A stretch of DNA of 8,963 nucleotides from an uncultured Bacilli bacterium (GCA_934177545.1 CAKPPI010000035.1:1-8963), one strand, 5' to 3'. Positions 1 to 8,963 are shown, counted from the first letter of the stretch. The notes: a model not told the origin generated them from the sequence alone. Numbers and translations: made by a program.

Positions 1-340
1 CCATGCCTTGAATACTAGGTAGAGCATTAGTTAATTCATCAAAGAAAACAATGTGAAGTTTATTAGGTTCTTTGTCACACTTTTCTTGTAATTTTTTATA
101 CCAAGTTGGGGGAACATCAAGCATTTCACCAGTACTGGCATTATAGACACTTTTGCCATTTAGACTGTCTGGAGTAGCATTTCTTAAATATAGAATTACA
201 CAATCCGGATCTAGTTGCTTTACTCTACTTGATTTGCCATCACTACTCCTGCCATGTAAGAAAACAGAAACATTACTTTGGATAGCCCCTTTAATAATGT
301 CTTCTTCACTTACTTTAGAAAAATCAAAATTGTATGAACT
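1..340 (-). repeat. Copy 1 of the direct nucleotide repeat formed by the ATPase cores (pairs with 3880-4219).
   Basis: Ungapped alignment at a constant offset of 3879 nt. The first 60 nt have 6 mismatches and the next 60 roughly 15, so my by-eye estimate is 80-90% identity overall. Similarity decays beyond about position 330/4209. The left limit is unknown because the window ends. Confidence 0.85.
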
Positions 341-1174
341 TGAAAATTTAGTATCTTTAATAGAATCTTTTATTGGAAGTAATTCTTCACTTAAACCTTG
401 GGTTAATTCTCTAGCAAAACAAGTATTTAAAAATTGATAAATTCTAGTTTCTTCAAACTTAGTAAAATTAGAATTATCCGCAAATTGAACACCAGCAAAT
501 AAAATTTTTTCACTTATCATTTGATGCTTTTTAGTATCTAGTAACCAATAAACTGGTTCTACATTAACCCAAATACTATCGCCATTTTTATACTTGGACT
601 TAAACCCATTATACAAGCCTGTATTGGCAACGGCTTTTATTAATCTTTTATCTTCTAATTTATATTCTTTAAAAGTAATAGGAGCAAAAATTTCATCATA
701 TTCGAATTCTTTTCTAGAATCTGCAGTGTAATAATTATTGGTTAATTGCAATTTACCCTGCTTTAGCATATTATCTAATTTCTCTTGTTCTAGCCCATTT
801 AAGGCCGATTGTGGATAATAACCGTATTTTACTTGAAAAATATGTTCCGTGGTTGTATCCAGATTTTTAGTTAATTCTTTTTCAATATTTTCAGGCAAAT
901 TATAAACAACTCTAGCCCCAATATCCCGCAAGCTAATACTATAAGTTGCCGAATAACCTTCTTCATCAACAATAATAACATTTTTATCACTACTAACTGT
1001 TGATTTAGTCCAATAAGGGCCATAATTTAATTTAGATTCAGGGTCATAATAAGCCCCTAAAATAATAGAATAATCAGTTAATGGTGATTTAGTACCCGCT
1101 ACTTTAAAGATTTCCAATACTTGATCATCATTACCAAAAACATCTTCGCCAGTTATAAAAGTAAAATCATTCAT
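1..1174 (-). CDS. AAA+ (AAA_5/MoxR-like) ATPase, paralogue B, with a divergent N-terminal domain. Only the 5' part (391 codons) is in the window; the 3' end runs off the left edge.
   Basis: Hand translation of the minus strand from ATG (complement of 1172-1174) is open to position 2 with no stop: MNDFTFITGEDVFGNDDQVLEIF...KYGYYPQS...IWVNVEPVYWLLD...FDFSKVSEEDIIKGAIQSNVSVFLHGRSSDGKSSRVKQLD...LHIVFFDELTNALPSIQGM. Walker A GRSSDGKS is at 230-253 and Walker B hhhhDE is present. It is missing from the ORF track because it has no in-window stop. Nucleotides 1-~340 align without gaps to 3880-~4219. Confidence 0.85.
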   Translation of the reverse strand, partial: MNDFTFITGEDVFGNDDQVLEIFKVAGTKSPLTDYSIILGAYYDPESKLNYGPYWTKSTVSSDKNVIIVDEEGYSATYSISLRDIGARVVYNLPENIEKELTKNLDTTTEHIFQVKYGYYPQSALNGLEQEKLDNMLKQGKLQLTNNYYTADSRKEFEYDEIFAPITFKEYKLEDKRLIKAVANTGLYNGFKSKYKNGDSIWVNVEPVYWLLDTKKHQMISEKILFAGVQFADNSNFTKFEETRIYQFLNTCFARELTQGLSEELLPIKDSIKDTKFSSSYNFDFSKVSEEDIIKGAIQSNVSVFLHGRSSDGKSSRVKQLDPDCVILYLRNATPDSLNGKSVYNASTGEMLDVPPTWYKKLQEKCDKEPNKLHIVFFDELTNALPSIQGM

Positions 1175-1194
1175 TTTTTTCAACTCTTTTCTTT

Positions 1195-2640
1195 TTAAAA
1201 TTTTCTTCTAAGCCCATAACCAGAAGAAAAGCCAGATAGTCGTTCTAAGGCCTCACTATCTATATAAATAACTTTGCCTCCAGGAGGATTAATTTTAGCA
1301 TTACCAAACACAATCCAGATAGCATTAACTCTCTTACTTGGCATATCGGCGTAACCATCAGTAAATATAATTTTATTTTCTACTCTTTTAGAAAAAGCAT
1401 TAACAGCAACATCAAAATCAGTACCCCCAAAGCCCACTAGAGGAAAAGTATCAATATCATTAATATTTCTTATTTCTTGAAAGCCATAGAATTTAGTATC
1501 AAAGCACCCTACTTTGACTTTTGAAGTTGTAAAAATATTTTTACATTCTCTTAAAAAATTACGTAATAAGGTCTCATCAATAGAGCCACTAGTATCTAAT
1601 ACTATTTCTGTAACTGGTTTGGGTATATCTTCTAAATGAGGAACAACACAGCCATCTTCAATGGTAGCATTTTGATAAGACCAATCAGTATCATAAGTAA
1701 TTGTCTCTCTTAAAAGACGACGCCAATCAATTAATGGTTTAGAACTACCAATATTATCTACATCTCTTTTTTCCATATTAGTTGTATTACCATGATTACT
1801 TGCTTCTTGGGCTAATGACTTTTTTAATTCTTCTAATACTTTAGCTCTTTCAATTTTATTTTGAGCAAATGCATTCTTTTCACCAATATTAGCAAATTTC
1901 TTTGTTAACTCTTTTACTTTCTTTTCTTTATCGCTTTTGTTATCTGATTCTCCATTGCTGTCTTTATTTTTAGAATCGGTATTTTGTTTATTTGGATTAG
2001 ATTTTTCTTTTTTACCACCCTCATAAGTATCGTTAGTCTTATTATTAGCTTTTTCTAAAGCTTTTTTCCATAATTCGTGGTTAGTTGGTGGGGTGATACT
2101 ATTAATATCAAAGTCGTCGCTTTCAATATTATTGCTAGAACTACTTTGAACACTTTGATTTCCTGAACCGTTAGATTTTTCTTGATTCTCATTTTCTTGT
2201 TGACTGTTAGAGTCGCCGTTAGCGCTCTTAGACTTTTCATTTTCTTGTTTAATTTGCATTAATTTTTCATATAATTCTTCGGCATTATAATTAATGGCAC
2301 CTTCTATTTCAACGGAACCTTTTAGTACTGGTAGTTTATCAATTTTTAAAAAAGCATTGGCAACGGCATCGCAGGCGATATTCCATATTGATGGGTCTTT
2401 TCCTATACTTCTATCAACATGCAGGAAAATGATATGACAAGTTTCATGAGCTAATACAAATACTTGTTCATCCAGTTTTAATTGGGAAAGAAAGGCCTCA
2501 TTATAATAAATATTATCACCATCAGTAGCGGCTGTTTTAGTACCCTCATCTTTTATATATTTTAAGTTAGCAATGACACTACCAAAGAAAGGATACTTTA
2601 TCAACATTTTTCTTTTTATTTTATCAATATCAACATTCAT
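1195..2640 (-). CDS. Two-domain protein: N-terminal HExxH putative Zn-metallopeptidase (DUF2201_N-like), a long low-complexity linker, and a C-terminal vWA-like domain with an intact MIDAS (DUF2201/CoxE-like VWA).
   Basis: 481-aa ORF. AHETCH (HExxH, nt 2434-2448) is followed by SIWNIACDAVANAFL. The Ser/Asn/Lys/Glu/Asp-rich linker spans about aa 131-245 (nt ~1906-2250). MIDAS elements are DTSGS (nt 1582-1596), GGTDF and IIFTDGYAD. An AGGAG RBS lies 5 nt upstream of the ATG and overlaps the stop of the upstream gene. Confidence 0.85.
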   Translation of the reverse strand: MNVDIDKIKRKMLIKYPFFGSVIANLKYIKDEGTKTAATDGDNIYYNEAFLSQLKLDEQVFVLAHETCHIIFLHVDRSIGKDPSIWNIACDAVANAFLKIDKLPVLKGSVEIEGAINYNAEELYEKLMQIKQENEKSKSANGDSNSQQENENQEKSNGSGNQSVQSSSSNNIESDDFDINSITPPTNHELWKKALEKANNKTNDTYEGGKKEKSNPNKQNTDSKNKDSNGESDNKSDKEKKVKELTKKFANIGEKNAFAQNKIERAKVLEELKKSLAQEASNHGNTTNMEKRDVDNIGSSKPLIDWRRLLRETITYDTDWSYQNATIEDGCVVPHLEDIPKPVTEIVLDTSGSIDETLLRNFLRECKNIFTTSKVKVGCFDTKFYGFQEIRNINDIDTFPLVGFGGTDFDVAVNAFSKRVENKIIFTDGYADMPSKRVNAIWIVFGNAKINPPGGKVIYIDSEALERLSGFSSGYGLRRKF

Positions 2641-2648
2641 AATTGCTC

Positions 2649-3050
2649 CTATATTATAGCTACTAAAGAAGCTACTTCTTCATTTAATTTATTACTATCT
2701 AAATCGGTTACTGTTAAGACAATCAAAGTGTTTTTAGGTAAGTCAAAAGTTGATATTTTCTTATATTTTAATATTTCTATAAATTTAGTTTGGCCGTTTA
2801 TATCTATTTTGTTAACGTTTCTAATCATAAGAACTGGTCTTGTTTTTTTAGCTTGCTCTAGAAGTTTGGTATACCAGTCTGGTGGGCAGAAGTCTACTCC
2901 TTCATAATGACCATTTAAGTCTTCTATTTTACAGTCATTAGCAAGAAGAATACTATTTTTGAAAATATCTTTGTACGTATCTTCTATTAATATAGGAAAC
3001 TCGCCTAATTTTAAATAGTCTTTTAATATTTCTAACTTTTCTTTATTCAT
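2649..3050 (-). CDS. 133-aa protein resembling the AAA core of the flanking ATPases but lacking Walker A and Walker B residues (putative catalytically dead AAA-like subunit).
   Basis: The ORF has a GAAGGAAAG RBS about 7 nt upstream and sits 8 nt from the next gene. By eye it aligns to ATPase A: PPDWYTKLLEQAKK vs PPTWYKKVVEKCEK; VLMIRNVNKI vs IVFFDELTNA; FDLPKNTLIVLTVTDLD vs WKLPKNARIVAAGNDLD. Where the ATPases have GRSSDGKS it has EDTYKDIF. Confidence 0.7.
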   Translation of the reverse strand: MNKEKLEILKDYLKLGEFPILIEDTYKDIFKNSILLANDCKIEDLNGHYEGVDFCPPDWYTKLLEQAKKTRPVLMIRNVNKIDINGQTKFIEILKYKKISTFDLPKNTLIVLTVTDLDSNKLNEEVASLVAII

Positions 3051-3085
3051 AAGTTTACTTTCCTTCTTCTTTAATCTTTATAAAT

Positions 3086-5080
3086 TTATAAGTTTGGTGT
3101 TTGATTATTATCCATATAATCTAATTGATTAAAAAAGTTAACCGCCTCTAGATATTGTTTGGCTTTTTTAGCTTTTACTAATTTTAGATTGTTAAGTGTT
3201 TCTAATCTTTTTGGATTATTGTAAGTCCAGATGGCATCAAACATTGATAATAACCCTTTACCAAACCAACTAATAAAGTCTCTAACTATTTCTAAATCTT
3301 CTTCTTTTGTCTGCATTGCTAAGCTAACTGTTGTAGCATACCTTTCTGAAGTGCCAATATGCGCATCTGCCACAGCTTCAATATCCCATTTCTTAGTTAT
3401 AATATCGTTATAGCTTATTGCTTTTTGATTACAGAATGCAATAAACTTTTTAGTTAAAACTTCACCAATTAAAGCTCTTAACATTTCAGGCTTACCAGTT
3501 TGGTATAAAACCTTAGAAGCCATTTCCCATTTTCTAGGGTCAGCATTAGGTTTCTTACCATCAAATCGTGTTCTTAAAATATTATGTTCATATAACTTTT
3601 CATAATAAATAAAGGCATAAATGGCAGGATGAATTTTCATAGGATTTTCTTTTGGCTCATAAGATAAAGACGTATAATTCTTACTTTCAGTAGCAGCCCA
3701 TTTTAACCAGTCATTGGTAGTTGTGTTGATATAAACATGGGCAAATCTATTAAATAGCGGTTCAGCCATTTCATTAGCAGCCAAAGAGTCATCTAAGTCA
3801 TTACCAGCCGCTACTATTCTTGCATTTTTAGGCAGTTTCCAGATGCCATTTACTTCGCCATCTAAAATAATATTAAAGGCCATGCCCTGAATACTAGGCA
3901 AAGCATTAGTTAGTTCATCAAAGAAAACAATATGAATTTTATCTGGCTCTTTTTCGCATTTTTCAACGACCTTTTTATACCAAGTTGGTGGTATATCAAG
4001 CATTTCACCAGTATTTTCATTATAAACAGATTTACCATTTAAACTATCAGGAGTAGCATTTCTTAAGTAAAGGATTGTACAATCATGGTCTAACTGTTTT
4101 ACTCTACTAGATTTACCATCGCTACTTCTACCATGTAAGAATACGGCTACATTACTAAGAATAACTCCTTTAATAATATCTTCTTCACTTACTTTAGAAA
4201 AATCTAAATGATATGGATTTGGTTCCTTTTGTAACTTTTCAGATTCTTCAGTCTCACTATGTTTAGGTTGATTAAATTGAAGCATTTGTGTTAATTCTTT
4301 AGCAAAAATATTATCTAAATACCACTTAATACCGGTTGCTTCAAAATTATTTTTATCATTTTTATTATATGAATAGCTGATATTAGAAAACAGTAAATAT
4401 TCACTTACTAAAAGATTAGTTTCTTTATCAACTAACCATTTAACTGGACTTACTTCTAGCCAAACAAAATCGTCTCTTTTTACTTTTCTACCATCATTTA
4501 AAGTAGCAAAATCACAGCAAGAACGATTTATAACTCTGACGTAATGCTTTCCTTCATAAATATATTCTGGAATAACTAAAGGTGAAAAATCACAATCTTT
4601 AGTAAGCCAATCATTCTTATCTACTGTGAAACTATTACCACTATATTCCAAATTAGAAATACTATATTCTTTTTCTAACTTTTTTTGCATATCATCTGAT
4701 ACTGCCATTTGAGGATAAAAGCCATATTCTACTTCTCTTAAAACATTTGGCTGCTTAGAACGTCTACAAAATAGTAAATTTCCTTTTTTGTCAATAAGAT
4801 TTTTGATATCGTCATTCATTGGTAATACTGGGCGTGATGCAACATTTTTTATATTATCAGCATCATGTTTTAAAGAACCACTGTAATTAACCACTACTAC
4901 TTCATCGTTAATTAAATTCTTTAGCCAGTAAAAGCCATAATGGTTATTATCAATAGCATTGTAACCACCAAGAAGAATAGAAAAATCTGTTTGAATTGCT
5001 TTTACTCCATATTTTTTTAAAACTGATAATTGATGTTCACCAAATACTTGTTCCTTATCTAAAAATGTAAAATCTGACAT
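3086..5080 (-). CDS. AAA+ (AAA_5/MoxR-like) ATPase, paralogue A, 664 aa: ~290-aa N-terminal domain, P-loop core, ~200-aa C-terminal region.
   Basis: Walker A GRSSDGKS (nt 4109-4132), Walker B IVFFDE (nt 3914-3931), sensor-1-like IVAAGN, and a MoxR-type PLFNRF motif. I prefer the ATG at 5080 (MSDFTF..., matching paralogue B MNDFTF...) over the track's GTG at 5089. The GTG lies inside an AAGGTG Shine-Dalgarno (5087-5092) 6 nt upstream of that ATG. Confidence 0.9.
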   Translation of the reverse strand: MSDFTFLDKEQVFGEHQLSVLKKYGVKAIQTDFSILLGGYNAIDNNHYGFYWLKNLINDEVVVVNYSGSLKHDADNIKNVASRPVLPMNDDIKNLIDKKGNLLFCRRSKQPNVLREVEYGFYPQMAVSDDMQKKLEKEYSISNLEYSGNSFTVDKNDWLTKDCDFSPLVIPEYIYEGKHYVRVINRSCCDFATLNDGRKVKRDDFVWLEVSPVKWLVDKETNLLVSEYLLFSNISYSYNKNDKNNFEATGIKWYLDNIFAKELTQMLQFNQPKHSETEESEKLQKEPNPYHLDFSKVSEEDIIKGVILSNVAVFLHGRSSDGKSSRVKQLDHDCTILYLRNATPDSLNGKSVYNENTGEMLDIPPTWYKKVVEKCEKEPDKIHIVFFDELTNALPSIQGMAFNIILDGEVNGIWKLPKNARIVAAGNDLDDSLAANEMAEPLFNRFAHVYINTTTNDWLKWAATESKNYTSLSYEPKENPMKIHPAIYAFIYYEKLYEHNILRTRFDGKKPNADPRKWEMASKVLYQTGKPEMLRALIGEVLTKKFIAFCNQKAISYNDIITKKWDIEAVADAHIGTSERYATTVSLAMQTKEEDLEIVRDFISWFGKGLLSMFDAIWTYNNPKRLETLNNLKLVKAKKAKQYLEAVNFFNQLDYMDNNQTPNL
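3880..4219 (-). repeat. Copy 2 of the direct nucleotide repeat formed by the ATPase cores (pairs with 1-340).
   Basis: See copy 1. Confidence 0.85.
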
Positions 5081-5086
5081 CCAAAT

Positions 5087-5108
5087 CACCTTGGGACATA
5101 TAATAACA
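5087..5108 (-). promoter_or_regulatory. Shine-Dalgarno (AAGGTG, 5087-5092) and a possible extended -10 (TGTTATTAT, 5100-5108) upstream of ATPase A.
   Basis: The SD is clear and well spaced from the ATG at 5080. The extended -10 is only a pattern match, has no good -35, and sits very close to the SD. Confidence 0.35.
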
Positions 5109-5121
5109 TATTTTCTTATAG

Positions 5122-5165
5122 AAAAGAAAAAAAGATATAGTCATGTGTTAAAAAAACTATATCTT
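5122..5165 (-). terminator. Weak AT-rich hairpin plus U-tract between the 408-aa gene and the ATPase operon.
   Basis: A 10-bp stem pairs AAGATATAGT (5132-5141) with ACTATATCTT (5156-5165) around a 14-nt loop. On the minus strand it is followed by TTTTTCTTTT. The stem has only two G-C pairs, and it lies about 275 nt downstream of the 408-aa stop. Confidence 0.35.
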
Positions 5166-5324
5166 AATTATATTTTATTGTTTATTTTCTAATTCTAAGG
5201 CTTTTAAATAAGTTCTATTCTTGTTTTTAAATCATTAGTTAGAGAATTTAATCTATTATTGCTTATATTGCTTATTCCGGACATTATTATAATAAATTGG
5301 CATTTTCATTGAACTTTTTTACCA

Positions 5325-5346
5325 TTTTTGGCACTTATTGTTCAAT
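5325..5346. repeat. ~21-nt direct repeat, copy 1 (TTTTTGGCACTTATTGTTCAAT).
   Basis: It matches 5401-5421 (TTTTGGGCACTTTTGTTCAAT) apart from two single-nucleotide indels. A partial inverted half-site, TTGGCATTTTCATTGAAC, lies at about 5298-5315. Confidence 0.5.
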
Positions 5347-5400
5347 AAATTTATATAATAATTATATAGAATTTTAAAAAGTTAATCAACATTTTTGCAG

Positions 5401-5421
5401 TTTTGGGCACTTTTGTTCAAT
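5401..5421. repeat. ~21-nt direct repeat, copy 2.
   Basis: See copy 1. The copies are 76 nt apart, in the 3' flank of the 408-aa gene. Confidence 0.5.
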
Positions 5422-5441
5422 GAAAAACATAATTTTATATT

Positions 5442-6668
5442 TCAAATGCCTAATTGATACGGTGAATTTGATGAACCATTGCCGGCAGTAATTATGATAT
5501 TTGATTTTAAATATAGCACTGGATAAACTCTGAAATCTTGCCAATAACTATACGCATCGCAAACATGTCCATTATCATCAATTCTAAACACTTTGTCTGT
5601 TGTATTTGTTATTAAAGTCATAGTCCAATAATAGTGTCCTTCTTTAAAAAGATAATCATTATTTCGACATTCTTCATAATCAGTAGTATGCCAAGTACTC
5701 GCGTTAGATTTAAGACAGTCATTTCTCGACTTTACAGCTCCACCAGAAGTGGCATAGCCATAATCACTAGGATATATTAACCCAACTTTTCCTAACCAGG
5801 TGGTTTTATATCCATCATTTATTTTTGTTCCTCTTTCTAAGTCGTAAAAATCTTTATAGGTTATTTCATTTGTACTGCTACCACCAATATGCCATACAAT
5901 ATTTTCTATTGCACTATGTGTTAGGTTACTTTTCAAACCAGATTTGCTGTAATCAACACTTTTAGGTTCAGAAGTAGTTGTACCAAAATAATATGTTCCT
6001 GACATTGCATAATAATAAGCACTATCATTTAGTAACTTTTTTAATGTTGAATTAGGCCAGTAGTTTGATGATGATTGATCTTTAGTATAATCAAAAGCTA
6101 AATTATCTATACTATCATTTCTAATTATTTTAATTAGATTCTCTTTAGTTCCATCCTCTTTTTCGATATTATTAAATACACCTATAATACGCCATTTTTC
6201 GCAAGCATCACTTGTCTGATTAGCATAATCACTACAATTAAAATAGACATAATTATCTGGATTTGCTCCTATATATCTTATATTATTATCAGCATCATCA
6301 CTTACCATATTGATAGAATCTGTACTGGCTAAATTAGTTATCTTTGTTACAGCATTTTCACCACTTTTAAAATATAGATTACATTTAACTTTGGTAGTAA
6401 AATTAGTAACATATAATCCCCATGAATCATTATCCCACTCGATATTAACATTGTTATCACAGTCAGCACTCGAAAAGACAACTGTTCCTTTTTCAGGAAA
6501 AGTATCTATTCTAGATTCATCTATAAAAATTGCCATTTGCTCTTTATCTACTAGATATTTATTATTTTGTTTTATTGATAATATTAAAAAAGTAATCACT
6601 AAAATACAAGATAATCCTATATAAAAGTATTCTTTTAATAATAATCTATTTAAATTAGCCTTCTTCAT
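5442..6668 (-). CDS. Membrane-anchored (single N-terminal TM) extracytoplasmic protein with 7 ectodomain Cys. Its C-terminal module carries motifs of the Firmicutes surface-protein 'WxxS..LN / SDYgYA / YWT.T / RVYPVLYLK' type.
   Basis: 408-aa ORF with N-terminus MKKANLNRLLLKEYFYIGLSCILVITFLILSI (basic then hydrophobic). Motifs: EKWRIIGVF, NLIKIIRND, NYWPNSTLKKLLND, GLIYPSDYGYATSGG, YYWTMT, FRVYPVLYLKS, and a terminal GNGSSNSPYQL. An AAGGA RBS lies about 9 nt upstream. The stop codon is TGA. Confidence 0.85.
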   Translation of the reverse strand: MKKANLNRLLLKEYFYIGLSCILVITFLILSIKQNNKYLVDKEQMAIFIDESRIDTFPEKGTVVFSSADCDNNVNIEWDNDSWGLYVTNFTTKVKCNLYFKSGENAVTKITNLASTDSINMVSDDADNNIRYIGANPDNYVYFNCSDYANQTSDACEKWRIIGVFNNIEKEDGTKENLIKIIRNDSIDNLAFDYTKDQSSSNYWPNSTLKKLLNDSAYYYAMSGTYYFGTTTSEPKSVDYSKSGLKSNLTHSAIENIVWHIGGSSTNEITYKDFYDLERGTKINDGYKTTWLGKVGLIYPSDYGYATSGGAVKSRNDCLKSNASTWHTTDYEECRNNDYLFKEGHYYWTMTLITNTTDKVFRIDDNGHVCDAYSYWQDFRVYPVLYLKSNIIITAGNGSSNSPYQLGI

Positions 6669-6738
6669 AATTCTTTATCCTTACTAATGTTAAGAATAAA
6701 ATATTTAAGTAATCATTATTTACAAATGATTTACACTT

Positions 6739-6765
6739 TTCATAGAGCTTAAAACTCTATGAAAA
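6739..6765. repeat. 27-nt repeat, left copy, itself a hairpin (TTCATAGAG-CTTAAAA-CTCTATGAA).
   Basis: TTCATAGAGCTTAAAACTCTATGAAAA. The reverse complement of 7002-7028 matches at 26 of 27 positions, including the asymmetric loop. The two copies are therefore in inverted orientation. Confidence 0.8.
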
Positions 6766-6803
6766 TTATAGGTGAAATCTGGGCTTAAATGCCATTTGAC
6801 TAG

Positions 6804-6911
6804 AATTTTGACCACAATAGTTTCTTTAATTAATGACTACAAAATACGTTTTAAAGTAAGGATTCACCTATGTTTGTAGTAAATTTATCTGACCACAATT
6901 TTGACCATAAT
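6804..6911. repeat. Three copies of TGACCA(C/T)AAT; two share the longer form AATTTTGACCAYAAT.
   Basis: Copies lie at 6804-6818 (AATTTTGACCACAAT), 6890-6899 (TGACCACAAT) and 6897-6911 (AATTTTGACCATAAT). The last two are tandem with a 12-13-nt period. Confidence 0.5.
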
Positions 6912-7001
6912 TAAGATTTTTTTCTAATAAATTTTTATAGAATTTAGCTAACTTTTATGGTATATTTATAATATAAGTTAAGATTAATGTGCGTTTTTTT
7001 G

Positions 7002-7028
7002 TTTTCATAGAGTTTTAAGTTCTATGAA
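7002..7028. repeat. 27-nt repeat, right (inverted) copy, followed by TTTTT on the plus strand.
   Basis: TTTTCATAGAGTTTTAAGTTCTATGAA. It is the inverted copy of 6739-6765 with one mismatch. Confidence 0.8.
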
Positions 7029-7063
7029 TTTTTCTTACTTTAAGTAATATACACTATAACGAC

Positions 7064-7112
7064 AAAACAGCTTATCTACTATATAAAATACTGTAGGTAG
7101 GCTGTTTTTAAT
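7064..7112. terminator. Long hairpin with flanking A and T tracts (bidirectional-type terminator) downstream of the yafQ-like gene.
   Basis: AACAGCTTATCTAC (7066-7079) pairs with GTAGGTAGGCTGTT (7093-7106) around a 13-nt loop, with AAAA upstream and TTTTT downstream. In plus-sense RNA all 14 positions pair (2 G.U). In minus-sense RNA those two positions become C.A mismatches. Confidence 0.5.
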
Positions 7113-7160
7113 TAATAAAATTAAAAAGAAACCTTAGAGATAGTTCCTTTTACATTAATG

Positions 7161-7469
7161 CTATTTTTCTAATATTTCACTATGACTGCCAGTAGTTACT
7201 AATAATAATACCAAATTATCATTGATATATTTGTAAACTAACAACCAGTCAGGTTTTAAATGACATTCCATACAATCTCTATAAGTTTTATCATTTATTA
7301 GGCTATGATTTCTATATTTTTCATCTAATTCTTCGCAATTTGCTAATCGTGTTATTACTTCAATTAAGATATTAATGTCTTTACCTTGCTTAACTATTTT
7401 TTTAAAATGTTTCTTAAATTCACTAGTATAATCTATTTTACATTTAGTATTTAAATCTAAGTTAATCAT
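7161..7469 (-). CDS. yafQ: Type II toxin, YafQ/RelE-family mRNA interferase.
   Basis: 102 aa. The pattern is YafQ-like: YTSEFKKHFKKIVKQGKD, ..YRNHSL.., TYRDCMECHLKPDWLLVYKY, TTGSHSE. The start overlaps the antitoxin stop by 8 nt (A-ATG-ATT-AA). Confidence 0.85.
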   Translation of the reverse strand: MINLDLNTKCKIDYTSEFKKHFKKIVKQGKDINILIEVITRLANCEELDEKYRNHSLINDKTYRDCMECHLKPDWLLVYKYINDNLVLLLVTTGSHSEILEK

Positions 7470-7755
7470 TTAGTATAGACCTTACCATTTCTTTGGCATT
7501 ATTGTAACCTTTTCTTTTTCCTTCTTTATATTCCTGCTCAATTATTTGACCTTCCTTCAAGGCAGTTTCTAATTCATCATTATATATTGGATTGGCTATT
7601 TCAAATGGCACTGCCTTTCTTTTTATAACCTGTTTTAAAGTCATATTAATTAAAGTAGTCATATTCAATCCCAAATCTTTTAATATGATAGTAGCCTCTT
7701 CTTTGTCTTTTGGATCAACGTGGACGTTTATAACTCCATTAGTTAGTGTTTGCAT
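7462..7755 (-). CDS. dinJ: Type II antitoxin, DinJ/RelB family (ribbon-helix-helix N-terminus).
   Basis: 97 aa. INVHVDPKDKEEATIILKDLGLNMTTLINMTLKQVIKRKAVPFEI is a typical DinJ N-terminal domain. An AAGAGGT RBS lies 6 nt upstream. It sits immediately upstream of, and overlaps, the YafQ-like toxin gene. Confidence 0.85.
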   Translation of the reverse strand: MQTLTNGVINVHVDPKDKEEATIILKDLGLNMTTLINMTLKQVIKRKAVPFEIANPIYNDELETALKEGQIIEQEYKEGKRKGYNNAKEMVRSILND

Positions 7756-7841: not shown

Positions 7842-8180
7842 TCAATATGCGTTGCTACCTGTAATACTAAAATTATTTAAATAAATATAAATAATACACA
7901 TTCCTAAAAAATTATTAATATTAATATGTATATTATAAAATATTAAATAAGTTATCATAATTTGTAAGAATTTATTACATATATTAAAATAATGGTATTT
8001 CCTAAATAAATAGATAATAATAAAAATAGGTATATATAATAAATTATGAGTTAAATAAATAATTATAATAAGACTTAATATATTTAAATAATCTTTATGA
8101 TAAGTTAAATAGAATAAATAAAGGCTAGTATTAAAAGGGGTTAATGAATAAAATAAGATATCTAGTATTAAGTAAATCAT
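7842..8180 (-). CDS. mreD: Small polytopic membrane protein, probable MreD.
   Basis: It follows mreC with an ATGA stop/start overlap (ATG = complement of 8178-8180). There are about four hydrophobic segments rich in I/L/Y/F. A 113-codon open frame in DNA of roughly 10-12% GC is unlikely by chance, because stop codons are AT-rich. The track's TTG start at 8207 was not used. The MreD call rests on position and topology, not on recognised motifs. Confidence 0.5.
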   Translation of the reverse strand: MIYLILDILFYSLTPFNTSLYLFYLTYHKDYLNILSLIIIIYLTHNLLYIPIFIIIYLFRKYHYFNICNKFLQIMITYLIFYNIHININNFLGMCIIYIYLNNFSITGSNAY

Positions 8181-8758
8181 ATAGTATACTCCGTAAGGAT
8201 TAAACAATAATTAGTATCTATAGGATTTAGGATTATATTACAGATAGTATTATTATCTTTAATACTGCAGGTATCTATAGTACCTATTAATAAATTACTA
8301 GGTAAATTAGTTAAACCACTAGTATAAATATTAGTATTTTTATCAATATTTACTTCTTTATTTATAATTACTTTATTATCTTTATATAGTCCTAAAGTAT
8401 TTCCTACTTTTATCGAGATGGTAAGATTTGAAATAGGCACTAAAGTATTATTGGTATTAGTTATTCCTATTAATCCTTTATCGTTTATAACCGGATGTTT
8501 GGGTTCTATTAAGGAGTTACTTTTTAAATAGTAAATATTACTATTATAAAGGTTTTTAATTAAGATTTTACTTATTATATAGTCATAATTATTATATTTA
8601 ATATTACTTAAAGTTTCTATTTCTTCTTTTAAAGAATAGTTTTCTAATTCTAATAAGTTATATTTTACTTTATCTATATCATTACTTTTTATTAAATCTA
8701 AAAAAGGATTAATTAGTAAAATAAGTAATATTGGGATATATTTTAAATATTTTTTCAT
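8177..8758 (-). CDS. mreC: Rod shape-determining protein MreC.
   Basis: N-terminal TM (KYIPILLILLINPF), a coiled-coil-like LELENYSLKEEIETL, then MreC-type beta-domain motifs: VINDKGLIGITNT, ISIKVGNTLG, IYTSGLTNLPSNLLIGTI. I prefer the ATG at 8758 (MKKYLKY) over the track's GTG at 8767; either is possible. Confidence 0.8.
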   Translation of the reverse strand: MKKYLKYIPILLILLINPFLDLIKSNDIDKVKYNLLELENYSLKEEIETLSNIKYNNYDYIISKILIKNLYNSNIYYLKSNSLIEPKHPVINDKGLIGITNTNNTLVPISNLTISIKVGNTLGLYKDNKVIINKEVNIDKNTNIYTSGLTNLPSNLLIGTIDTCSIKDNNTICNIILNPIDTNYCLILTEYTI

Positions 8759-8777
8759 AATAATCACATTTATAGTA

Positions 8778-8806
8778 TGAAAAAAATCGTATGGTTTTAT
8801 ACGATT
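8778..8806 (-). terminator. Rho-independent terminator after the short DinJ-like ORF.
   Basis: Minus-strand RNA: AAUCGUAU-AAAACC-AUACGAUU followed by UUUUU. The 8-bp stem pairs 8785-8792 with 8799-8806, with a 6-nt loop. The stem overlaps the TAA stop codon. Confidence 0.6.
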
Positions 8807-8963
8807 ATTTGTTATTGGTTATTTTAAAGGGAATACTATTTTTTATAATAAGTTGTTTTATGGTCATATTTATATAAGTATTTAAATCTAGTCCTAACTT
8901 TTCTAATATTTCTTGGGCTAGTTTTAGGTCTTTATTATCTATTTCTATTGTTATATTTTCCAT
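8805..8963 (-). CDS. Short (52 aa) DinJ/RelB-like ribbon-helix-helix protein with no adjacent toxin gene.
   Basis: Hand translation from the ATG at the window edge (complement of 8961-8963): MENITIEIDNKDLKLAQEILEKLGLDLNTYINMTIKQLIIKNSIPFKITNNK*. It aligns clearly with the N-terminal half of the 97-aa DinJ at 7462-7755 (shared I.D.KD...A..IL..LGL...T.INMT.KQ.I....PF.I). It was not in the ORF track. The true start could lie beyond the window. Confidence 0.6.
   Translation of the reverse strand: MENITIEIDNKDLKLAQEILEKLGLDLNTYINMTIKQLIIKNSIPFKITNNK

Follow-up and report, generated by a model that had tools for sequence, protein, structure and literature searches.

A lectin-headed ATPase, a dead AAA+ core and a zincin–vWA protein form a candidate diversifying conflict module in gut Bacilli

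The window analysed here, an 8,963-nucleotide (nt) stretch of DNA from an uncultured Bacilli bacterium (CAKPPI010000035.1, assembly GCA_934177545.1), carries four minus-strand genes that run in the same direction and encode two sensor-type ATPases, a 133-residue AAA+-like protein, and a putative metallopeptidase fused to a vWA domain. In order, these are ATPase A (3086-5080, 664 residues), the 133-residue protein (2649-3050), the zincin–vWA protein (1195-2640, 481 residues), and ATPase B (1-1174), of which the first 391 of ~633 residues are present because the window edge cuts the gene. A first-pass annotation of this DNA had read the four genes as one operon, and this was confirmed by the intergenic gaps of 35, 8 and 20 nt, by the overlap of the TAG stop codon of the 133-residue gene with the Shine-Dalgarno sequence TAGGAG of the zincin–vWA gene, and by a terminator scan that found no terminator-like site between the genes. 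The likeliest start of ATPase A is the ATG at 5080, which is preceded by AAGGTGA and gives a protein beginning MSDFTF, in parallel with the MNDFTF of ATPase B; 5089 and 5108 are less likely starts. The AT-rich spacer upstream of ATPase A (5081-5441, minus strand) is the likely promoter region of the operon. Sigma-70-like matches at 5389-5361 (10/12) and 5184-5156 (9/12) are only suggestive because they do not exceed shuffle expectation; promoter and terminator scans as a whole gave nothing above that level, and Rfam returned no RNA family in the window.

ATPase A is made up of a lectin-like head, an AAA+ core and a helical C-terminal domain. The alpha/beta core (3731-4195, minus strand) has a Walker A motif, GRSSDGKS, at residues 317-324 (4109-4132), a Walker B pair, D388-E389 (3914-3919), sensor-1 N427 and Arg finger R445. 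These motifs are invariant or at least 90% conserved among 47 family members, with G317, G322, K323, S324, E389, N427 and R445 strictly invariant, so that the earlier description of Walker A and B as intact is supported across the family. With 4845 cluster representatives at E ≤ 1e-3 and 325 at E ≤ 1e-30, this is a large family. The ATPases and the 133-residue protein had no match in Pfam, NCBIfam or PADLOC at E ≤ 0.01; the AAA_5 profile scored 16.2 bits on ATPase A (E = 0.011), short of its gathering score of 22, and only 5 of the 47 relatives matched it at E ≤ 0.01. A PDB sequence search gave nothing relevant for ATPase A or the zincin–vWA protein, and phrog_1297, annotated 'ATPase', matched the ATPases at 2e-40.

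An AlphaFold2 model of ATPase A (pLDDT, the model's per-residue confidence, 81.5) gave Foldseek matches in the PDB to MCM and NorQ (including 9qhg), and in BFVD to phage ATPases of ~350-400 residues (dynein-related AAA, COG0714 MoxR-like, CobS) and to ATV ORF618. DSSP assignment on the model placed hairpins at 350-363, before helix 2, and at ~409-418, before sensor 1, and the predicted fold is that of the helix-2-insert/pre-sensor-1 hairpin clade. The label AAA_5/MoxR-like given in the first-pass annotation thus holds at the level of fold and partner but not at the curated Pfam threshold; 'MoxR-like' is justified by the matches to NorQ and to phage MoxR-type folds and by the vWA partner, rather than by the AAA_5 score. 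Direct reading of the sequences revealed no signal peptide or membrane segment on the ATPases.

The 133-residue protein aligns to residues 341-449 of the ATPase (BLASTP 3e-05), and profile comparison with the ATPase family by hhalign gave 91.5% probability (E = 8.7e-07). In the alignment the P-loop and DE motif are replaced, and the protein is without Walker A, Walker B and lid. Its AlphaFold2 model (pLDDT 90.6) matched AAA+ ATPases or AAA+ motor/helicase assemblies in all of the best 50 PDB matches listed by Foldseek, among them NtrC1, Lon, McrB, dynein and NorQ (9qh8_A, TMq 0.65). The protein had been described from the sequence as a degenerate AAA-like protein, and all three lines of comparison agree with this. 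Because its 205 homologues are nearly all 130-137 residues long, it is better regarded as a conserved dead AAA+ core than as a decaying fragment: judging from alignment and model, a complete AAA+ core predicted to be unable to bind or hydrolyse ATP.

The third type of protein consists of an N-terminal zincin domain, a low-complexity acidic/polar linker and a vWA domain. Both Pfam models suggested for it beforehand were matched above their gathering scores, DUF2201_N at 5e-33 (115.3 bits, cut-off 23.2) and DUF2201 at 3e-13 (50.4 bits, cut-off 26.4), and phrog_1314 matched it at 7e-67. The zincin motif HETCH occupies residues 65-69 (2434-2448), and the DTSGS of the metal-ion-dependent adhesion site (MIDAS) lies at 1582-1596, both on the minus strand. 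Across 42 aligned relatives, some of them from Clostridia or phages, the MIDAS residues D349, S351, S353, T407 and D428 were invariant, as were H69 and H74; H65 and E66 were at least 90% conserved. Conservation and Pfam thus both uphold the proposed metallopeptidase–vWA fusion and the completeness of its MIDAS. Taken together, these sequence features indicate that the window holds part of a three-component module of lectin-headed ATPases, a dead AAA+ protein and a zincin–vWA protein.

The head of ATPase A (4271-5080, minus strand; residues ~1-270) forms the bulk of an N-terminal domain of ~290 residues. Such a domain had been noted in ATPase A; it is present there, but it is not exclusive to A, since ATPase B has a domain of the same type and the two proteins align end to end. 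Identity between A and B is 45% overall, with divergent heads and cores that are ~90% identical. By eye, the heads contain the motifs 'FL..E ... YW.K ... ARPAL' and 'W.EV..I.WLV', as in DUF6273, which has a C-type-lectin fold and serves as a target domain of diversity-generating retroelements (DGRs) (PMC10743442). Pfam scans found DUF6273 over the equivalent 'YWxK...ARPAL' stretch in three homologues, passing the threshold in one (P0136, 27.3 bits versus 23.5) and falling below it in the others (P0203, P0232); in P0203 the match covers residues 51-95, the YW...RPAL stretch. One relative matched Fib_succ_major. The window's own proteins had no DUF6273 match in Pfam even at E ≤ 10, and the head's lectin fold was not confirmed by Foldseek because the full-length search with ATPase A was dominated by the AAA+ part. 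The head is, however, homologous to the domain that DGRs target in five related loci (L011, L015, L072, L077 and L108; loci are numbered with an L prefix throughout). From these similarities, we infer that it is related to C-type-lectin-fold, DUF6273-like ligand-binding domains.

Close relatives of the window show how these heads vary. A 98%-identical zincin–vWA protein is present on gut-metagenome contigs and in a Hadza 'uncultured Bacilli' metagenome-assembled genome (MAG; CAKOSN010000008). On longer, near-identical contigs the operon reads A-133-vWA-B-C-D (L004/L005, four ATPase paralogues) or A-133-vWA-B-D (L009, three), so the four genes first described are real, but the operon extends beyond them by one or two ATPase paralogues; ATPase B is full length in L004 (11467-13368). 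Each paralogue consists of a ~290-residue N-terminal domain followed by the ATPase. At the amino-acid level the heads are 12-60% identical and the cores 80-100%; at the nucleotide level the cores of B and C are 94-100% identical and their heads 46-68%. Uniform cores joined to divergent heads indicate gene conversion or cassette exchange. ATPase copy number ranges from 1 to 4 among relatives, and differs even between strains whose vWA proteins are 98% identical. Stand-alone head-like open reading frames (ORFs) of ~330 residues, lacking an ATPase, lie directly downstream of the zincin–vWA gene in L074, L075 (12242-13234), L078, L079 and L100.

In other relatives the head is the target of a DGR. 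In L011 (a circular 1.2-Mb Bacilli MAG), L014 and L015, a reverse transcriptase (RT; RVT_1 6.6e-18) gene lies directly upstream of the lectin-ATPase gene and is itself preceded by a bAvd-like gene; overall, 44 loci have 2.5 kb or more of DNA upstream, and in 9 of these RT is directly upstream; it is also present in 3 shorter contigs. RT, Avd and template/variable-repeat components are present in L011, L014, L015, L072, L077 and L108. A template repeat of ~80 nt lies between the avd and RT genes, and the paired variable repeat, which encodes 'ARVV...GGARPALP', lies in the 5' part of the ATPase gene. Differences between the two repeats fall mainly at template adenines: 16/27 A positions versus 1/53 non-A positions in L108, 11/28 versus 2/56 in L077, 12/26 versus 1/54 in L015, and 53/134 versus 12/274 when five loci are pooled (Fisher p = 9e-19). 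Loci L072 and L077 are almost the same in their flanks, yet their variable repeats encode different peptides. These patterns show that the retroelement rewrites ~25 head residues in about a fifth of the related loci.

The corresponding segment can be located in the window. Residues 60-87 of ATPase A (EVVVVNYSGSLKHDADNIKNVASRPVLP; 4820-4903, minus strand) align with the variable repeats of L077 (ARVVNEDGSRTWYRVIKRNGGARPALP) and L072 (ACVVKRNGTRSWNNVNERSGGARPALP), and residues 64-94 of ATPase B (893-985, minus strand) align with ATPase A and with the DGR targets. Among the window's ORFs none matched RT or Avd, and no template repeat was found; the only internal repeat in the window is that between the paralogues. 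Among related loci, 14 have at least two ATPase paralogues (an apparent second ATPase in L077 is its 133-residue gene and was not counted), and all of these except L014 are without a DGR. The two routes to head diversity thus appear to alternate in the family, and the window's lineage has tandem paralogues with divergent heads in place of the retroelement, numbering 2-4 in sister contigs, with two of them inside the window.

The template repeats of some relatives contain an in-frame stop codon (TAG or TAA). Template and variable repeats lie at 6258-6336 and 7856-7933 in L011, 6213-6292 and 7874-7952 in L015, and 6686-6765 and 8288-8367 in L108. The variable repeat of L011 reproduces its template without mutation, stop codon included, and that of L108 has TGA at this codon; the target genes of these two loci are interrupted. 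The variable repeats of L011 and L015 each have a 1-nt deletion. The template stop codons may reflect DGR-driven ON/OFF switching, decay, or a mixed-population consensus.

The order ATPase, 133-residue protein, zincin–vWA protein recurs in genome loci L008-L015 and in 80 metagenome loci gathered by a scan with a profile of the 133-residue protein; in all, the 133-residue gene is present in 94 loci and the triad is conserved in about 90 fetched loci of gut Bacilli. Two other forms exist. Clostridia (Mogibacterium, Anaerovoracaceae, rumen MAGs) have a two-gene form, vWA followed by a 544-residue ATPase with a weaker head match, and the 133-residue gene was not detected in these loci. Lectin-less triads, whose ATPase of ~366 residues is like the phage form described below, occur in L083-L086, L090 and L104, and a single contig (ERZ825670.282; L075, L085) has a lectin-bearing and a lectin-less triad ~26 kb apart.

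Flanking genes differ from genome to genome and are mostly housekeeping, for example polC/polA/serS ... fpg/pyk in L060, dnaK/dnaJ/holA ... rnhB in L062, and mreCD in the window. The 125 immediate neighbours in 35 dereplicated loci fell into 137 Pfam families, none of them in more than four proteins; the commonest were AAA_14, HTH_3, ClpB, MraY, FtsA and RuvA. No conserved client, prophage module or defence island was present in the flanks examined. The neighbourhood comparison recommended in the first-pass annotation therefore found a conserved unit without a client enzyme or prophage setting, but did not bear out an enrichment near defence genes.

Both core proteins have relatives in phages. 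Homologues of the ATPase core and of the zincin–vWA protein, ~25-34% identical, occur in about 520 phage records, with both genes in the same phages (N4-like Schitoviridae, PA5oct-like jumbo phages, cyanophage S-TIM5), 1-3 kb apart among replication genes. The phage proteins share with those of the window the homologous ATPase core, DUF2201_N/DUF2201, and the HExxH and MIDAS residues; unlike the latter, the phage ATPases are ~350 residues long and have no lectin head. A tblastn search of phages with the L077 lectin head gave no match, no counterpart of the 133-residue protein was found near the vWA gene of the N4-like phage EK8, and the window had no DNA similarity to phages. The pair of MoxR and metallopeptidase–vWA proteins has been noted before in jumbo phages, with a proposed role in virion assembly (Iyer et al. 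2021, PMC7824862), and is therefore not itself novel.

The closest described relatives in concept are the MoxR–vWA ternary systems with DGR-diversified FGS/C-type-lectin domains (Kaur et al. 2020, PMC7159879; Dore et al. 2024, PMC10907252); cytoplasmic NTPases with lectin-fold heads that DGRs diversify have there been put forward as the antigen sensors in conflict systems. In common with the module described here, these have a MoxR-like ATPase along with a vWA protein, a third component, a DGR-diversified lectin head, a peptidase, a cytoplasmic location and a predicted role in sensing invaders. They differ in several respects. Ternary systems carry the lectin domain on the vWA protein rather than at the N-terminus of the ATPase; their third component is VMAP, iSTAND, FtsH or a beta-propeller rather than a dead AAA+ core (Pfam domains of these four kinds were absent from all operon proteins); and their peptidase is a trypsin or caspase rather than a zincin fused to vWA. 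Effector-associated adaptor domains, a feature of the ternary systems, were not found here. Finally, ternary systems use a DGR, which in the window is replaced by tandem paralogues, and their hosts are multicellular cyanobacteria or actinobacteria rather than unicellular gut Bacilli with reduced genomes.

Other comparisons are more distant. The pairs NorQ–NorD, CbbQ–CbbO, RavA–ViaA and CoxD–CoxE likewise combine a helix-2-insert AAA+ fold with an adjacent vWA/MIDAS partner; unlike these, the present module has no conserved client and has a hypervariable head, a peptidase fusion and an extra dead AAA+ protein. In magnesium chelatase BchI/BchD, and similarly in CobS/CobT, the active AAA+ protein is accompanied by an AAA+ module that is inactive, by an acidic linker and by a MIDAS-bearing vWA domain. 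In BchD the dead AAA+ module, linker and vWA domain form one polypeptide, whereas here the dead AAA+ protein is separate and the vWA protein carries a zincin; the operon proteins had no Mg_chelatase Pfam match, and no porphyrin or cobalamin genes lie nearby. DGR-diversified lectin folds reportedly also occur on AAA-type ATPases of small-genome bacteria, with the variable region C-terminal rather than in an N-terminal head as here. Two DGR reviews make no mention of ATPase or vWA targets, and searches of PADLOC 2.0, NCBIfam and the literature found no description of this architecture. As had been expected if the system were novel, PADLOC-DB 2.0.0, which covers systems to 2023, gave no family at E ≤ 0.01 for the four operon proteins or the neighbouring 408-residue protein. 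What is new is the arrangement in which the DGR/lectin-diversified MoxR–vWA theme and the MoxR/zincin–vWA pair are combined, and the host group that carries it.

The architecture, conservation and diversification of the module emerge directly from the computational analysis. The interpretation that we favour, with a probability of roughly 0.55, is that it functions as a diversifying sensor-ATPase/protease conflict system with an anti-phage or anti-parasite role. A conflict role seems most likely because DGR targeting and divergence confined to the head are signatures of arms-race recognition, and because NTPases with lectin-fold heads have been suggested to act as antigen sensors. The idea of an uncharacterised NTPase/vWA conflict system, already put forward in the first-pass annotation, is strengthened by the DGR-targeted lectin head, the lack of any PADLOC or NCBIfam match, and the lack of a client or prophage; its defensive part is putative.

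A plausible mechanism can be sketched by analogy with NorQ–NorD, CbbQ–CbbO and BchI–BchD. The ATPase would form a ring on which the dead AAA+ and vWA/MIDAS proteins dock, these two resembling a BchD split into two genes, long acidic linker included. The lectin heads would bind a ligand, the most plausible being a glycan or protein that belongs to a phage or another genetic parasite invading the cell, and ATP-driven remodelling would then hand the bound target to the tethered peptidase or switch the peptidase on. Conserved cores would allow all ATPase paralogues to fit the single dead AAA+ and vWA partners. A more specific version, which we consider quite unlikely as it stands, is an intracellular antibody-like machine in which the binding surface of the heads is rewritten by a DGR or, as in the window, divided among tandem paralogues; its ring captures phage proteins and feeds them to the zincin, tethered by way of a vWA/MIDAS adaptor and a dead AAA+ subunit, so that protection would come from targeted degradation with an anticipatory repertoire, not from abortive infection. 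If this were true, the template-repeat stop codons would add DGR-driven ON/OFF switching.

Several observations weigh against a conflict role and limit confidence in it. The support is computational, with complex formation, ligand and immune role inferred, and the lectin fold of the window's head rests on sub-threshold profiles and on homology to DGR targets. A DGR is absent from the window, and in sister contigs nearly identical to it the head differs by no more than scattered substitutions. Housekeeping genes (those named above, and ddl) flank the module rather than defence islands, and the absence of a PADLOC hit fits novelty yet gives no positive support. The module seems common in its lineage and has lectin-less versions, so that a basal non-immune function is possible, and the core pair also occurs in more than 500 virulent phages, where it cannot be host defence.

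Such observations bear on three alternatives. The module could be a non-immune, substrate-selecting machine for remodelling or proteolysis whose lectin head picks cellular or environmental protein or glycan substrates—for example in regulated turnover, processing of nutrients or host glycoproteins, or maturation of surface proteins—for processing by the AAA+ ring and zincin, with diversification serving to tune substrate range. Housekeeping flanks, wide presence in the lineage, the lectin-less triads and the contig holding both forms are all consistent with this, as are the paralogues of pilin-like or anchored surface proteins that adjoin the operon in the window and several relatives. On the other hand, these surface genes are missing from most loci, the ATPases have no export signal, and DGR hypermutation with head-only divergence is hard to square with a stable physiological substrate; we regard such a machine as unlikely. 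A classical MoxR–vWA chaperone that matures or metallates one fixed client, in the manner of NorQD, CbbQO, CoxDE or RavA-ViaA, would account for the NorQ-like AAA+ fold, the vWA partner with its MIDAS and the core-genome-like flanks. This seems very unlikely given that no client gene is conserved next to the operon in the 35 dereplicated loci, that a peptidase is fused to the vWA domain, that the head is hypervariable and DGR-targeted, and that paralogue number varies between strains with a 98% identical vWA protein. Least of all do we expect a domesticated or remnant phage module for virion assembly or host take-over. The homologues of both proteins in about 520 phage records, the PHROG matches and the BFVD fold matches point that way, but phage structural, integrase or lysis genes are missing from the flanks examined, nothing matches phages at the DNA level, protein identity is only ~25-34%, and the lectin head and the 133-residue protein were not found in phages.

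DGR-lectin NTPases proposed as antigen sensors have so far come mainly from multicellular cyanobacteria and proteobacteria. Their theme now appears in unicellular human and animal gut Bacilli with genomes of ~1.2 Mb, and in a compact architecture of three protein types with the variable head on the ATPase itself. The dead AAA+ and zincin–vWA partners have solved structural analogues in NorQD and BchID, and comparison of strains that have the retroelement with strains that have head-swapped tandem paralogues could reveal the ligand of the head. Relatedly, the cellular module may hint at the function of the ATPase/zincin–vWA pair in more than 500 virulent phages, and its small size suits it to reconstitution and to engineering of programmable recognition.

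The remaining genes of the window include overlapping mreC and mreD (7842-8767, minus strand), which are very AT-rich (GC content 0.15-0.20; at third codon positions, GC3, 0.12-0.13); the Pfam match of MreC is marginal (28.1 bits versus a cut-off of 28). The operon had been described as compositionally unlike mreCD. Such a contrast exists, but it is mreCD that deviates: the operon (GC 0.30, GC3 0.18-0.22) equals the contig mean of 0.29, and an argument for horizontal transfer from composition was rejected on that ground. Likewise, the toxin–antitoxin module reported nearby is present, as a type II RelB/YafQ pair (7161-7755, minus strand; YafQ_toxin 2.4e-26, RelB 8.4e-10) between mreD and the gene for a 408-residue protein, but its adjacency to the operon is not conserved across loci. 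A further RelB-like ORF of 52 residues (8805-8963, minus strand) lies upstream of mreC, and L004 has a second YafQ gene upstream of mreC.

The 408-residue protein (5442-6668, minus strand) has an N-terminal membrane anchor and no Pfam match; a resemblance to the ATPase head, suspected by eye, was unsupported by BLASTP. Members of its paralogous family also follow the operon in sister contigs (L004 17676-21446, L009 15746-20222), and several other loci have relatives downstream of their triad (L075 16467-18455). One relative carries the prepilin N_methyl motif, and in L004 the gene for the 408-residue protein is cut short by a premature stop. Between the 408-residue gene and yafQ is a 27-nt inverted repeat (6739-6765 and 7002-7028) with arms that are 96% complementary and 236 nt apart, which could be what is left of a small mobile element, or else a regulatory structure. 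In L004, two adjacent ORFs of 162 and 189 residues (884-1964, minus strand) that lie upstream of the mreCD region are by eye a candidate split transposase. In L008, an 80%-identical relative, the operon is flanked instead by an AAA_14/DUF4143 ATPase, a HipA_C-like kinase and an HTH_3 regulator (4989-7201, 13616-13972); these replace mreCD and the toxin–antitoxin pair, so that the position of the operon is not fixed even among close relatives.

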